From the NCBI RefSeq assembly GCF_030013205.1, contig NZ_CP122648.1: a stretch of 64,000 bases of DNA. One strand, written 5' to 3'. Source of the stretch: Escherichia coli. Lineage in GTDB: Bacteria > Pseudomonadota > Gammaproteobacteria > Enterobacterales > Enterobacteriaceae. Below the pieces are notes generated by a model, which had not been told where the DNA came from, searched no databases, and saw only the letters and a list, made by a program, of their open reading frames with translations. A program made the position numbers and the translations under genes. Shown here one piece after another: positions 43,447 to 47,266 of this stretch (position 1 is its first letter; each line of letters opens with the position of its first letter).

Positions 43447-44054
43447 GATTGTCTGCTCCCCTGTCTTGTTATAGGAGCAGTATTCAGGAATAAAAACATT
43501 CATTAAAAGAATTAGTCGTTATCGCACAGATGATTTTATTCTTAGCAAAAAAGCGGCAAAGGAAAGATTAAATATGCAATTACACCCACTCTGACAATTC
43601 AGTAAGTTACTGCACTTCATTTTTATTAATGCATAAACAAGCAGAACATAATGTCTTTTATTTTATTAACAGCAATACATATAATGAAATCATTATATTC
43701 ACATTGCATATATAACTGTATCATTCTCAATCAACCACATAATACATTCACATAATGTATATAATCCATATTTGTGCCTAGAACATATTTTTAATATGTA
43801 ATTAATTGACAAACTAAATCACATCTAAATACAATATATAAAACAAAATAACTATACAAACCAAACACACAAACACTTAACATATGAACTACATAAAAGA
43901 TTACGCAGTCGTATCCCCGTACCTGAAAGCCCCTTATTTTTCAGCTATCAGTAATTTTTAACACTTAAAAATTAGCATCTGTCTGTGCCAGAGATTACGT
44001 CTCTGCGGGCATCGTTGTGCTTGTAGTATAATAAATAAAATGGAGTGTCATTAA

Positions 44055-44726
44055 GTGGATAAGGTTTTAGATTCAGCCATCCTTTCTTCGGCAAATAAAA
44101 GAAAGGGTATCCTTGCTATTGGCGCACATCCTGACGATATAGAATTGGGCTGTGGCGCGTCGCTTGCTCGTCTTGCGCAAAAAGGAATTTATATCGCAGC
44201 CGTGGTGATGACTACCGGCAACTCTGGCACAGATGGAATAATCGATCGCCATGAAGAATCGCGCAACGCCCTAAAGATATTAGGGTGCCACCAAACTATT
44301 CATCTTAATTTTGCTGACACCCGCGCGCATTTGCAGCTCAATGATATGATTTCCGCCCTGGAAGACATCATTAAAAATCAAATTCCTTCTGATGTTGAAA
44401 TCATGCGGGTATATACCATGCATGATGCCGACCGCCATCAGGATCATCTTGCTGTTTATCAAGCTTCAATGGTTGCCTGCCGAACTATTCCACAAATTCT
44501 CGGCTACGAAACCCCAAGCACCTGGCTTTCATTTATGCCTCAGGTTTTTGAATCCGTTAAAGAAGAATATTTCACAGTCAAACTTGCTGCATTAAAAAAA
44601 CATAAAAGCCAGGAACGACGCGATTATATGCGTCATGATCGCCTGCGTGCAGTTGCACAATTTCGCGGGCAACAGGTCAATAGCGATCTGGGTGAAGGCT
44701 TTGTAATTCATAAAATGATTCTTTGA
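44055..44726 (+). CDS. yaiS: LmbE/PIG-L family deacetylase YaiS
   Basis: N-terminal AHPDDxE motif (ILAIGAHPDDIELGCG) typical of LmbE-like metal-dependent deacetylases; the exact start is uncertain and the ORF track uses GTG at 44055. Confidence 0.8.
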   Translation: MDKVLDSAILSSANKRKGILAIGAHPDDIELGCGASLARLAQKGIYIAAVVMTTGNSGTDGIIDRHEESRNALKILGCHQTIHLNFADTRAHLQLNDMISALEDIIKNQIPSDVEIMRVYTMHDADRHQDHLAVYQASMVACRTIPQILGYETPSTWLSFMPQVFESVKEEYFTVKLAALKKHKSQERRDYMRHDRLRAVAQFRGQQVNSDLGEGFVIHKMIL

Positions 44727-44735
44727 GCAAATTGC

Positions 44736-45932
44736 ATGAAAACCTGGATATTTATCTGTATGTCCATAGCAATGTTGCTATGGTTTTTAAGTACGCTAAA
44801 ACGTAAACCCAGTCAAAAGAAAGGCTGTATTGACGCCATTATACCTGCTTATAACGAAGGCCCGTGTCTGGCACAGTCACTGGATAATCTGCTGCGTAAT
44901 CCTTATTTTTGCCGGGTAATTTGCGTAAACGACGGCTCCACGGACAATACCGAAGCGGTCATGGCGGAAGTCAAACGCAAATGGGGCGACCGCTTTGTTG
45001 CCGTCACGCAAAAAAATACCGGTAAAGGTGGTGCGCTGATGAATGGCCTCAATTACGCCACCTGCGACCAGGTTTTTTTAAGTGATGCCGACACCTATGT
45101 TCCGCCCGATCAAGACGGAATGGGCTATATGCTTGCAGAAATAGAGCGCGGTGCTGATGCCGTAGGCGGCATTCCCTCTACTGCGTTGAAAGGCGCGGGT
45201 CTGTTACCGCACATCCGCGCGACCGTAAAGTTGCCGATGATTGTTATGAAGCGCACGCTACAGCAGCTCCTGGGCGGCGCACCGTTTATTATCAGCGGTG
45301 CCTGCGGGATGTTCCGTACTGATGTATTGCGTAAGTTCGGTTTCTCTGATCGTACTAAAGTCGAAGACCTTGATCTCACCTGGACATTGGTGGCAAACGG
45401 CTATCGTATTCGGCAGGCGAATCGCTGCATCGTATACCCACAGGAATGCAACAGCCCGCGTGAGGAATGGCGTCGCTGGCGGCGTTGGATTGTGGGCTAC
45501 GCGGTCTGTATGCGCCTGCATAAAAGGCTTTTATTTAGCCGCTTCGGTATCTTCAGTATATTTCCTATGCTGTTGGTTGTGCTTTATGGCGTTGGGATTT
45601 ATCTCACTACCTGGTTTAATGAATTCATCACCACCGGGCCGCATGGTGTGGTGTTGGCAATGTTTCCGCTTATCTGGGTCGGCGTAGTTTGTGTTATTGG
45701 TGCTTTTAGCGCCTGGTTTCATCGTTGCTGGTTGTTGGTGCCTTTAGCACCGCTTTCCGTTGTGTATGTATTATTAGCTTATGCCATCTGGATTATTTAT
45801 GGACTTATTGCCTTTTTTACTGGACGCGAACCTCAGCGCGACAAACCCACCCGCTATTCCGCACTGGTGGAAGCGTCAACCTCTTATTCCCAACCTTCTG
45901 TCACAGGAACTGAAAAACTTTCTGAAGCTTAA
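44736..45932 (+). CDS. yaiP: family 2 glycosyltransferase, membrane-anchored (YaiP)
   Basis: 398 aa with GT2 motifs (IIPAYNE, DxD-like LSDADTY) and C-terminal transmembrane segments. Confidence 0.85.
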   Translation: MKTWIFICMSIAMLLWFLSTLKRKPSQKKGCIDAIIPAYNEGPCLAQSLDNLLRNPYFCRVICVNDGSTDNTEAVMAEVKRKWGDRFVAVTQKNTGKGGALMNGLNYATCDQVFLSDADTYVPPDQDGMGYMLAEIERGADAVGGIPSTALKGAGLLPHIRATVKLPMIVMKRTLQQLLGGAPFIISGACGMFRTDVLRKFGFSDRTKVEDLDLTWTLVANGYRIRQANRCIVYPQECNSPREEWRRWRRWIVGYAVCMRLHKRLLFSRFGIFSIFPMLLVVLYGVGIYLTTWFNEFITTGPHGVVLAMFPLIWVGVVCVIGAFSAWFHRCWLLVPLAPLSVVYVLLAYAIWIIYGLIAFFTGREPQRDKPTRYSALVEASTSYSQPSVTGTEKLSEA

Positions 45933-46491
45933 TGTTAAAGAGAAAAATATTCAGATTGCAGACCAGGTAATTATTGATGAAACTGCAGGTGAAGTTGTTA
46001 TCGGCGCGAATACCCGTATTTGTCACGGTGCCGTTATTCAGGGTCCGGTAGTGATTGGCGCAAACTGCCTGATAGGTAATTATGCGTTTATTCGTCCTGG
46101 CACAATAATCAGCAATGGCGTAAAAATTGGCTTCGCCACCGAAATTAAAAATGCGGTTATTGAAGCGGAAGCAACGATTGGTCCGCAATGCTTTATTGCC
46201 GACTCGGTAGTTGCAAACCAGGCATATTTGGGCGCACAAGTACGAACCAGTAATCATCGTCTGGATGAACAGCCCGTGTCTGTTCGAACTCCCGAGGGAA
46301 TTATCGCTACCGGATGCGATAAATTAGGTTGTTATATCGGGCAGCGTTCACGCCTTGGCGTACAAGTTATTATTTTGCCTGGGCGAATTATTTCCCCGAA
46401 CACGCAACTTGGCCCGCGCGTGATTGTAGAACGTAATTTACCTACCGGAACTTATTCACTCCGACAAGAACTTATCCGTACAGGAGATTAA
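45781..46491 (+). CDS. yaiX: hexapeptide-repeat acyl/acetyltransferase (YaiX), intact
   Basis: Left-handed beta-helix hexapeptide repeats (VIGANTRICHGAVIQGPVVIGANCLIGNYAFIRPG); the start is uncertain because the ORF-track start overlaps yaiP by ~150 bp. Confidence 0.7.
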   Translation: MPSGLFMDLLPFLLDANLSATNPPAIPHWWKRQPLIPNLLSQELKNFLKLNVKEKNIQIADQVIIDETAGEVVIGANTRICHGAVIQGPVVIGANCLIGNYAFIRPGTIISNGVKIGFATEIKNAVIEAEATIGPQCFIADSVVANQAYLGAQVRTSNHRLDEQPVSVRTPEGIIATGCDKLGCYIGQRSRLGVQVIILPGRIISPNTQLGPRVIVERNLPTGTYSLRQELIRTGD

Positions 46492-46492
46492 A

Positions 46493-47266
46493 ATGATAAA
46501 ACGGACGTTATTAGCGGCGGCCATTTTTAGCGCATTACCCGCTTATGCCGGGTTAACTTCCATTACCGCGGGCTACGATTTTACCGATTATTCTGGCGAT
46601 CATGGCAACCGTAATTTAGCGTATGCTGAACTGGTGGCGAAAGTTGAAAACGCAACGCTGCTTTTTAATCTTTCCCAGGGGCGTCGTGATTATGAAACTG
46701 AACATTTCAATGCCACTCGCGGTCAGGGTGCGGTCTGGTATAAATGGAATAACTGGCTGACAACCCGAACGGGTATTGCCTTTGCGGATAATACGCCGGT
46801 CTTTGCCCGCCAGGATTTTCGTCAGGATATTAACCTGGCACTGTTGCCAAAAACGCTTTTCACGACCGGTTATCGCTACACTAAATATTACGATGATGTC
46901 GAAGTCGATGCCTGGCAAGGCGGCGTATCACTCTATACTGGCCCGGTGATCTCCAGCTACCGCTATACCCATTATGACTCCAGCGATGCAGGTGGTAGTT
47001 ACAGCAATATGATTTCCGTGCGTCTGAATGACCCGCGCGGCACTGGTTATACGCAACTATGGCTAAGCCGCGGAACAGGCGCTTACACCTATGACTGGAC
47101 GCCAGAAACACGCTACGGCAGCATGAAGAGCGTCAGTTTGCAACGTATTCAACCGCTGACTGAGCAACTTAATCTCGGGCTGACGGCAGGTAAAGTGTGG
47201 TACGACACCCCAACTGATGATTATAACGGTCTGCAATTTGCAGCCCATCTGACCTGGAAATTCTGA
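46493..47266 (+). CDS. yaiO: outer membrane beta-barrel protein YaiO
   Basis: 257 aa with signal peptide (MIKRTLLAAAIFSALPAYA) and C-terminal aromatic residue (WKF); matches E. coli YaiO. Confidence 0.88.
   Translation: MIKRTLLAAAIFSALPAYAGLTSITAGYDFTDYSGDHGNRNLAYAELVAKVENATLLFNLSQGRRDYETEHFNATRGQGAVWYKWNNWLTTRTGIAFADNTPVFARQDFRQDINLALLPKTLFTTGYRYTKYYDDVEVDAWQGGVSLYTGPVISSYRYTHYDSSDAGGSYSNMISVRLNDPRGTGYTQLWLSRGTGAYTYDWTPETRYGSMKSVSLQRIQPLTEQLNLGLTAGKVWYDTPTDDYNGLQFAAHLTWKF

Follow-up and report, generated by a model that had tools for sequence, protein, structure and literature searches.

Organisation of the yaiS-yaiP-yaiX-yaiO locus

The four genes yaiS, yaiP, yaiX and yaiO, together with the AT-rich DNA in front of them, occupy positions 43447-47266 of a 64,000-nucleotide stretch of Escherichia coli DNA from contig NZ_CP122648.1, which we refer to as the window. 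The segment from 43400 to 47400 is 100% identical to the corresponding DNA of strain K_EC180, a swine faecal isolate. Reading from the left, the tauD'CBA genes on the minus strand are followed by the AT-rich region and the four genes, and then by frmR-frmA-fghA. As the initial annotation described, the four genes are co-directional, tightly spaced and uninterrupted: the interval 44055-47266 is filled by four plus-strand open reading frames (ORFs), all of them open, corresponding to yaiS (44055-44726, GTG start, 223 amino acids), yaiP (44736-45932, 398 amino acids), yaiX (45781-46491 as the longest ORF, 236 amino acids) and yaiO (46493-47266, 257 amino acids). A gap of 9 nt separates yaiS from yaiP and one of 1 nt separates yaiX from yaiO, and yaiP and yaiX overlap by 23-152 nt according to the yaiX start that is chosen. 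This start is ambiguous, with candidates at 45781 (ATG), 45799 (ATG) and 45910 (CTG, the PGAP choice), all of which overlap the 3' end of yaiP. Orthologues of YaiX from five loci start MWW where E. coli reads HWW, and the conserved N-terminal WW sits upstream of the PGAP start; from this alignment the ancestral ATG of yaiX seems to have been lost in E. coli. The GC content of the cluster is 0.44-0.50, compared with 0.56 in the tau genes.

The AT-rich tauA-yaiS intergenic region is 608 bp long (43447-44054). No 608-bp segment of the 64 kb has a lower GC content than its 0.301 (mean 0.514, standard deviation 0.052), and the strong AT bias first reported for this stretch stands. The start originally given for it, 43504, does not, since that position was taken from the longest tauA ORF; the intergenic region begins at 43447, immediately next to the annotated start codon of tauA.

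Predicted functions of the four proteins

Searches with Pfam and NCBIfam profiles agree on the four domain assignments proposed at the outset, namely an LmbE-like deacetylase (YaiS), a membrane glycosyltransferase of family 2 (GT2; YaiP), a hexapeptide-repeat acyltransferase (YaiX) and an outer-membrane beta-barrel (YaiO).

YaiS matches the PIG-L family (PF02585) with 89.2 bits against a cut-off of 28.2 over residues 20-141, and aligns with positions 4-223 of the 226 positions of the BshB1 profile. Its best solved relatives are archaeal diacetylchitobiose deacetylases (8bgn, E 4.7e-12, residues 4-218). The AHPDD (HxDD) metal-binding and catalytic motif that had been picked out in the deacetylase can be read directly from the sequence at residues 24-28 (44124-44138, plus strand), and is conserved in all five orthologues with a complete N-terminus. 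An alignment of orthologues places the predicted third zinc ligand in RHQDH, residues 127-131 (44433-44447, plus strand), and residues D126, R127, H128, Q129, D130 and H131 are invariant among six orthologues. The resulting zinc motif, H25/D27/D28 plus H128/H131 with a spacer of 100-103 residues from D28, has the form HXD1D2+H and lies within the spacer range of 97-148 residues described for the LmbE superfamily (PMC4101496). YaiS has no signal peptide and no hydrophobic or transmembrane segment, and the dN/dS values for its gene are 0.11-0.14. We therefore consider YaiS a predicted cytoplasmic LmbE/PIG-L (CE14-type) zinc de-N-acetylase. A role as a bacillithiol or mycothiol deacetylase was considered and rejected, as YaiS scores 80 bits with the BshB1 model (TIGR04001) against a cut-off of 182.5 and no more than 27 bits with BshB2, MshB and Mca, and the context is wrong, there being no BshA/BshC context at this E. 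coli locus.

YaiX matches the hexapeptide repeat family (Hexapep, PF00132) with 64.3 bits against a cut-off of 27. It is most closely related to the C-terminal domains of archaeal GlmU-type enzymes, which are amino-sugar-1-phosphate N-acetyltransferases, the best solved one being the acetyltransferase domain of ST0452 (5z09, E 6.6e-23), with which both the left-handed beta-helix (LbH) and the C-terminal tail can be aligned. The match to the archaeal GlmU model (Arch_glmU, TIGR03992) reaches 130 bits against a cut-off of 292 and covers positions 233-393 of 393 only, that is, the C-terminal part, and no nucleotidyltransferase domain was found in YaiX by profile search. On these grounds YaiX is not a bifunctional GlmU or archaeal nucleotidylyltransferase-acetyltransferase; neither is it a truncated GlmU, as every orthologue likewise has the LbH domain standing alone. 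The protein lacks a signal peptide and hydrophobic segments, and is predicted to be a cytoplasmic, standalone left-handed beta-helix acyltransferase of the GlmU C-terminal type.

YaiP matches Glycos_transf_2 with 98.6 bits. Among 20 GT2 family models the best is that of PgaC/IcaA (TIGR03937) with 100.8 bits, the next best giving 43 bits, but the PgaC/IcaA score is far below the equivalog cut-off of 422.3, and the NodC model gives 29.6 bits against a cut-off of 550, so that YaiP is neither a PgaC/IcaA nor a NodC equivalog. There is one hydrophobic segment at the N-terminus and there are three at the C-terminus, and because a basic stretch follows the first of them the catalytic domain is placed on the cytoplasmic side. 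Residues D66, D117-A-D119, E210-D211 and R250-W251 are invariant in 29 sequences and R247-W248 nearly so, which gives YaiP the D, DxD, (T)ED and Q/RxxRW motifs. In an AlphaFold2 model (pLDDT 80.5, pTM 0.80) YaiP superposes on hyaluronan and cellulose synthases over about 340 residues, the closest matches being the Chlorella virus hyaluronan synthase (HAS; score 25.9 over 345 residues), PcManGT, a GT2 mannosyltransferase of Pyrobaculum calidifontis (24.8 over 300), BcsA (24.3 over 339) and Xenopus HAS1 (23.8 over 340). In this model the GT-A domain and the interfacial and transmembrane helices superpose on the channel region of HAS and BcsA. Unlike the Chlorella virus and Xenopus enzymes and BcsA, to which it is 14-16% identical, YaiP has fewer transmembrane helices, and it has no PilZ domain. 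At the level of sequence the GT2 domain also matches ArnC, GtrB and DPMS (E 1e-7 to 1e-12), but the modelled fold is nearer to polymer synthases than to any of these three. To judge from the model, then, YaiP is an inner-membrane GT2 with a cellulose-synthase-like fold that belongs among the membrane-embedded processive synthases. It is unusually conserved, with 62-69% identity between the Enterobacteriaceae and Xanthomonadales or Acinetobacter. The C-terminal tail of E. coli YaiP carries about 20 extra residues that are disordered in the model, and overlaps the 5' stretch of yaiX (45781-45932).

YaiO is the namesake of the TIGR04390 / PF19413 family and matches it with 184.8 bits against a cut-off of 32 over profile positions 1-230 of 230. 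It has a cleavable signal peptide ending in AYA, and the confident structural model (pLDDT 89) is a 14-stranded barrel, which indicates that YaiO is a secreted 14-stranded outer-membrane beta-barrel. A sequence search against solved structures gave nothing at E <= 1. The best fold matches include CymA and OmpG, which are channels for oligosaccharides, and FadL and TodX, which transport hydrophobic compounds, although such a comparison mainly sorts barrels by strand number. The family is small (180 cluster representatives at E <= 0.001 among 1.84 billion), and identity drops to 33-35% between the Enterobacteriaceae and Xanthomonadales or Acinetobacter; some of the distant YaiO-domain proteins carry an N-terminal SPOR domain or another extension. 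At other loci a YaiO-domain gene directly follows a gene for a WecB-type UDP-GlcNAc (N-acetylglucosamine) 2-epimerase (L013/L014, 741-8347, and L016, 394-3221), and in L013/L014 the gene string also includes a 422-residue GT2 with the Pfam signature of YaiP and three proteins of no known family. These loci may represent another uncharacterised type of glycan export operon. A transposon mutant in yaiO of uropathogenic E. coli CFT073 came out of a screen for changes in the expression of type 1 fimbriae (PMC6727828).

No Pfam or NCBIfam profile places any of the four proteins in a characterised pathway, all equivalog scores being far under their cut-offs, and profile searches thus leave intact the original view of the locus as an uncharacterised module.

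K-12 lesions and the alleles found in E. coli

The IS2 element reported in yaiX of K-12 is indeed absent from the window: a BLAST comparison of the K-12 locus with the window puts the insertion point at 46076-46081, where the sequence is continuous. There is a second difference in yaiS, where alignment with K-12 shows that codon 186 (44610-44612, plus strand) is CAG here and TAG (amber) in K-12. The amber codon cuts YaiS from 223 to 185 residues. K-12 YaiS is probably crippled, because the 38 residues that are lost hold invariant positions and align with the C-terminal part of a solved diacetylchitobiose deacetylase; the C-terminal invariants among the six orthologues are S185, Q186, R189, Y191, A201, F203, R204, G205, Q207, E214, F216 and K220.

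Intact genes are the norm in E. coli, and while all four genes are uninterrupted here as first stated, this is not a special property of the strain. An uninterrupted 34-mer spanning the IS2 site is present in 4394 of 5426 complete E. coli genomes (81%) and the K-12 yaiX::IS2 junction in 366; at codon 186 of yaiS, the CAG 33-mer is present in 2221 of the same 5426 genomes and the TAG 33-mer in 355, all of these counts being exact matches and therefore lower bounds, as nearby single nucleotide polymorphisms abolish the match. Where genomes with the K-12 lesions are named, they derive from K-12. O157:H7 does not have the cluster, and in BL21 there is a deletion associated with IS1.

Some earlier work on the module does exist. 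EcoGene 3.0, citing a 2011 meeting abstract, states that repaired yaiX' 'facilitated clumping during vegetative growth' and that YaiP was required (PMC3531124). We propose that the combination of yaiS(Am186) and yaiX::IS2 leaves K-12 itself unable to make the product. In the literature on yaiS, yaiP, yaiX and yaiO we found no paper characterising that product. The locus as such is no discovery, since its genes had been known and had been annotated before, and there were hints of a phenotype in 2011-2012.

Annotation of yaiS

In the identical strain K_EC180, RefSeq/PGAP annotates yaiS as a partial pseudogene (44055-44465). The ORF is open, it is full length by comparison with both the profile and the solved structure, and its C-terminal 38 residues hold the invariant positions given above. 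In view of these alignments we take the pseudogene label to be an artefact of annotation in the case of this sequence. Antisense to the 3' end of yaiS lies an intact ykiC-like ORF of 39 amino acids (44592-44711, minus strand), annotated both in K_EC180 and in K-12, and YkiC is counted among the K-12 small proteins (PMC6001520). The ykiC region counts as 'intergenic' in K-12 only owing to the amber-truncated yaiS. In the three CAG-allele genomes listed, the feature annotated at the codon-186 probe is a ykiC-like 'hypothetical protein' and not a PIG-L coding sequence. The copies of yaiS found on an island and a plasmid (see below) are annotated at full length (220-221 amino acids), and a cluster of the 223-residue YaiS with 1206 members is present in non-NCBI sources; databases also hold many truncated YaiS clusters. 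Apparently, RefSeq systematically truncates or pseudogenises intact yaiS owing to the antisense ykiC call.

Conservation and mobility of the four-gene cassette

The order PIG-L, GT2, LbH, YaiO is held in every complete context examined, which comprise at least 10 independent ones in at least five genera. The cassette adjoins hemB in Citrobacter braakii; it lies on a Salmonella enterica island together with a PapB-family regulator, ccdAB and an integrase, and on an Acinetobacter baumannii contig with a MobA/MobL relaxase. It also occurs on metagenomic or Pseudomonas-like contigs (two adjoining an MvaT gene, and another contig besides), and in Pseudoxanthomonas, where the four genes have the same order. 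Within E. coli there is a second copy on an island near cobU/cobS in strain S4 (L003, 7793-10999), and about 50 genuine large plasmids, mostly conjugative, carry the cassette. One of these is NZ_AP024124.1, a 128-kb conjugative IncF plasmid from cattle, in which the cassette (L018, 6953-10151) is 91% identical to that of the window and cnf2 is situated about 4 kb away, from 14251 onward. Pairwise dN/dS is 0.04-0.23 for all four genes, indicating purifying selection.

These patterns are best explained if the four genes form one operon that moves horizontally as a cassette. The conserved order, the close spacing, the purifying selection and the fold evidence together uphold, as far as bioinformatics goes, the initial suggestion that the four genes constitute one glycan module.

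The S4 island copy is a mosaic, in which YaiP, YaiX and YaiO show 94-98% protein identity to those of the window and YaiS only 63%, with dS saturated, which implies a recombination breakpoint inside yaiS. Other genes on this island are ibrB-like and PAPS-reductase-like, and one encodes a TonB-dependent receptor.

The AT-rich leader and transcription signals

A promoter scan of the leader identifies a candidate sigma-70 promoter, TTGACA-18-TACAAT, at 43806-43835 on the plus strand, matching the consensus at 11 of 12 positions. The constitutive RpoD promoter of K-12 yaiS, determined by RpoD genomic SELEX, has identical hexamers and spacing, and the spacer in question is marked as H-NS-bound (PMC3946193). 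The K-12 yaiS/tauA spacer also figures among the 'promoter islands', where three data sets associate it with H-NS (PMC3661553). The early suggestion of silencing by H-NS therefore accords with published K-12 data on H-NS binding. Transcription would start at the 43806-43835 promoter inside the H-NS-bound AT-rich region, and since the promoter region is bound in this way we propose that under laboratory conditions the operon is mostly silent. Copies of the cassette in other genera often have as neighbours a LuxR/GerE-type response regulator and sensor kinase, or a PapB-type regulator, whereas in E. coli there is only the AT-rich leader. No RNA family was matched between 43300 and 47800 in an Rfam scan at E <= 1, and hence no known riboswitch or small RNA in the leader.

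Within the operon there is a terminator-like hairpin at 44764-44783 (plus strand), 28 nt inside yaiP, composed of an 8-bp perfect stem followed by U5, with a minimum free energy of -12.3 kcal/mol (z -2.3). The island and Vir-plasmid copies of E. coli retain this hairpin, whereas those of Citrobacter and Salmonella do not; it could serve as an attenuator between yaiS and yaiP, or be due to chance. After the yaiO stop codon a GC-rich 7-bp hairpin (47275-47296, plus strand; fold energy -20.5 kcal/mol, z -2.0) without an adjacent U-tract is a weak terminator candidate. The terminator scan returned fewer sites than chance (three, compared with 5.1 expected), and for the end of yaiO our claim goes no further than a weak hairpin. 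The frmR promoter follows downstream of yaiO at 47396-47424, as located by the promoter scan and in published data (PMC3946193). An antisense RNA inside yaiP has served as a reporter control (PMC4666370).

Proposed function of the cassette and alternatives

The occurrence of a GT2 synthase and an outer-membrane barrel encoded together is a hallmark of the synthase-dependent exopolysaccharide systems (Pga, Bcs, Alg and Pel), and is seen here with YaiP and YaiO. The cassette resembles PgaABCD in having an inner-membrane GT2, an outer-membrane barrel, a step of GlcNAc de-N-acetylation and a link to aggregation. It differs from it in that the deacetylase is a cytoplasmic LmbE/CE14 enzyme, whereas PgaB is a periplasmic CE4 lipoprotein, and in lacking PgaD and control by cyclic di-GMP (c-di-GMP), while having an extra LbH acyltransferase. 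There is also a likeness to the NfrB/NfrA/YbcH exopolysaccharide system, which provides the receptor for phage N4, as this too is a cryptic E. coli system in which a GT2 synthase is matched by an outer-membrane protein of its own. NfrB and NfrA sit with YbcH, much as distant YaiO-domain genes do with a WecB-type epimerase and a GT2. In contrast to the Nfr system, the cassette is without a c-di-GMP-binding domain, a large tetratricopeptide repeat (TPR) outer-membrane protein or an epimerase; what it has in their place is a deacetylase and an LbH acyltransferase. Taken together, we read the cassette as most like a stripped-down synthase-dependent exopolysaccharide system.

With moderate confidence, we propose that the cassette specifies a minimal pathway of the synthase-dependent kind, whose product is an N-acetylhexosamine glycan, most likely based on GlcNAc, that is either displayed on the surface or secreted. 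A sugar of the GlcNAc type is suggested because the nearest characterised relatives of all three enzymes use GlcNAc or glucosamine (GlcN) substrates. In this model, YaiP would polymerise N-acetylhexosamine (probably GlcNAc) from a UDP-sugar at the inner membrane face, threading the chain outward, YaiS would remove the N-acetyl group, and YaiX would re-acylate the freed amine or the same residue. The editing by YaiS and YaiX would be cytoplasmic, acting on a precursor or on the growing or terminal residue. YaiO would give passage through the outer membrane or anchorage in it, and the product would make cells adhere to each other. The neighbourhood of distant YaiO-domain genes, with WecB-type epimerases and GT2 enzymes, also counts for a glycan.

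Several observations weigh against this proposal. The product has never been isolated, and the clumping is documented solely by a meeting abstract that a database paper cites (PMC3531124). Since that clumping was seen in K-12 with an amber yaiS, YaiS may be dispensable for it. The four proteins include no c-di-GMP receptor of the PilZ, PgaD, Alg44 or PelD type, and the cassette has no extra ORF; nor is there a periplasmic TPR scaffold or a periplasmic modifying enzyme in it, YaiO being a barrel only. YaiO, moreover, has 14 strands and matches channels for small solutes, oligosaccharides or hydrophobic compounds, not 16-strand polysaccharide porins. With four hydrophobic segments, as in NodC, the modelled synthase YaiP might release short oligomers instead of translocating a polymer, and a chain that has already been extruded cannot be reached by cytoplasmic editors. 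A locus in Stenotrophomonas has the three enzymes and no called yaiO. Finally, the identity of the sugar is taken from the substrates of family relatives only and is accordingly a prediction.

Some of these difficulties would be eased if the product were an acylated oligosaccharide or glycolipid comparable to a Nod factor, with YaiP making a short GlcNAc oligomer or glycosylating a lipid on the cytoplasmic side, YaiS de-N-acetylating one residue, YaiX acylating that residue and YaiO providing the amphipathic product with a route to the surface. NodC/NodB/NodA, with NodL in some cases, offers a similar arrangement, in which a small GT2 with 1+3 hydrophobic segments is combined with a cytoplasmic de-N-acetylase and then with an acyl or acetyl transferase that acts on the edited residue. 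Deacetylation precedes acyl transfer in the NodB/NodA/NodL series, which is the order proposed for YaiS and YaiX, and NodL is itself a hexapeptide-repeat enzyme. Both editors being cytoplasmic, a released oligomer or a lipid-linked sugar is easier to accommodate than an extruding polymer, and LmbE enzymes use GlcNAc-glycosides, including lipid-linked ones, as well as chitobiose (PMC4101496). PcManGT, a minimal cellulose-synthase-like enzyme, is among the best matches of YaiP, which shares the 1+3 segments of NodC, and the fold of YaiO resembles FadL, TodX, CymA and OmpG. The Nod resemblance is, on this comparison, one of logic and not of homology: YaiS is an LmbE protein where NodB belongs to CE4, YaiX is an LbH protein and not of the NodA type, and export would be by a barrel and not by the NodIJ ABC transporter. 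YaiX, furthermore, is nearest to GlmU-type enzymes using acetyl-CoA rather than to LpxA or LpxD, which use acyl-ACP; the cassette is without a flippase or ABC exporter; YaiP falls far short of the NodC cut-off (29.6 bits against 550); and cell clumping is more typical of polymers. We consider a product of this kind the main alternative, possible but on balance unlikely.

A third explanation is that YaiP and YaiS make undecaprenyl-phosphate-GlcN, following the logic of ArnC/ArnD and LgmA/LgmC, for decoration of lipid A, the lipopolysaccharide core or another envelope glycan. The lipid A amino-sugar routes are built around just such a pair of GT2 and deacetylase, and in HpnI/HpnK, ArnC/ArnD and LgmA/LgmC the GT2 likewise acts first, the transferred amino sugar then losing an N-acyl group; HpnK belongs, like YaiS, to the LmbE family. 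The sequence matches of YaiP to ArnC, GtrB and DPMS noted above point the same way. The fold comparison does not favour this idea, an outer-membrane barrel has no role in such a route, and the cassette is without a periplasm-facing GT-C transferase of the ArnT/LgmB type and without a flippase. Compared with HpnI/HpnK-type systems it lacks a GT-C transferase or hopanoid genes and adds an acyltransferase and a barrel, and we regard undecaprenyl-phosphate-GlcN synthesis as improbable.

That the four genes are unrelated neighbours, or decaying acquired DNA silenced by H-NS, is very improbable, for although the low GC content (0.44-0.50 against 0.56), the H-NS-bound region, the absence from O157:H7, the deletion in BL21, the two K-12 mutations and the many truncated YaiS clusters would suit a remnant, they stand against a strict gene order across at least five genera and plasmids, dN/dS of 0.04-0.23, invariant catalytic motifs, an uninterrupted yaiX in 81% of complete E. 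coli genomes and the phenotype upon repair that EcoGene relays.

If the synthase-dependent pathway is nevertheless the correct explanation, then its combination of features is unusual. We found no characterised counterpart that joins cytoplasmic LmbE and LbH editing to a cellulose-synthase-like enzyme and a TPR-less 14-strand barrel. As a tentative proposition, therefore, the cassette would specify a new E. coli surface polysaccharide adhesin, with cytoplasmic rather than periplasmic LmbE and GlmU-like editing of the N-acyl groups of a GlcNAc-type chain and a TPR-less 14-strand barrel, free of c-di-GMP control and spreading among chromosomes, islands and virulence plasmids in several Gammaproteobacteria.

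Other features of the window

To the left of the cluster, tauD (40033-40883, minus strand), which ends the neighbouring taurine operon, is split into two ORFs, 40446-40883 (145 amino acids) and 40033-40335 (100 amino acids), and is labelled 'frameshifted' by PGAP in K_EC180. The ehaB (yaiT) autotransporter adhesin gene (35545-38493, minus strand) is annotated as intact in K_EC180; upstream of this gene, at 38300-39000, the DNA is again strongly AT-rich. Further away, AT-rich DNA between acpH and malZ contains a hypothetical ORF of 484 amino acids (3207-4664, minus strand) with only a sub-threshold Pfam match, to DUF3700, and an IS200C transposase gene, as annotated in K_EC180, is situated between proY and brnQ (8332-8790, minus strand).

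Biological significance

About four fifths of sequenced E. coli carry the cassette intact, as judged from the yaiX site (81%), and K-12, on which most knowledge is based, is a double mutant. Because K-12 has these two lesions and the promoter is bound by H-NS, an entire surface-glycan pathway may have gone unnoticed. Its mobility, as seen in the copy that accompanies cnf2 on a conjugative Vir-type plasmid and in those of Acinetobacter, Salmonella and Citrobacter, points to a selectable trait. Should the product prove to be an adhesive glycan of the GlcNAc type, it would be a further matrix or adhesin component beside cellulose, poly-N-acetylglucosamine and colanic acid, and would have a bearing on biofilm formation, phage receptors and host colonisation. 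Cytoplasmic N-acyl editing together with a cellulose-synthase-like enzyme would, in that case, represent a new way to diversify a synthase-made glycan.

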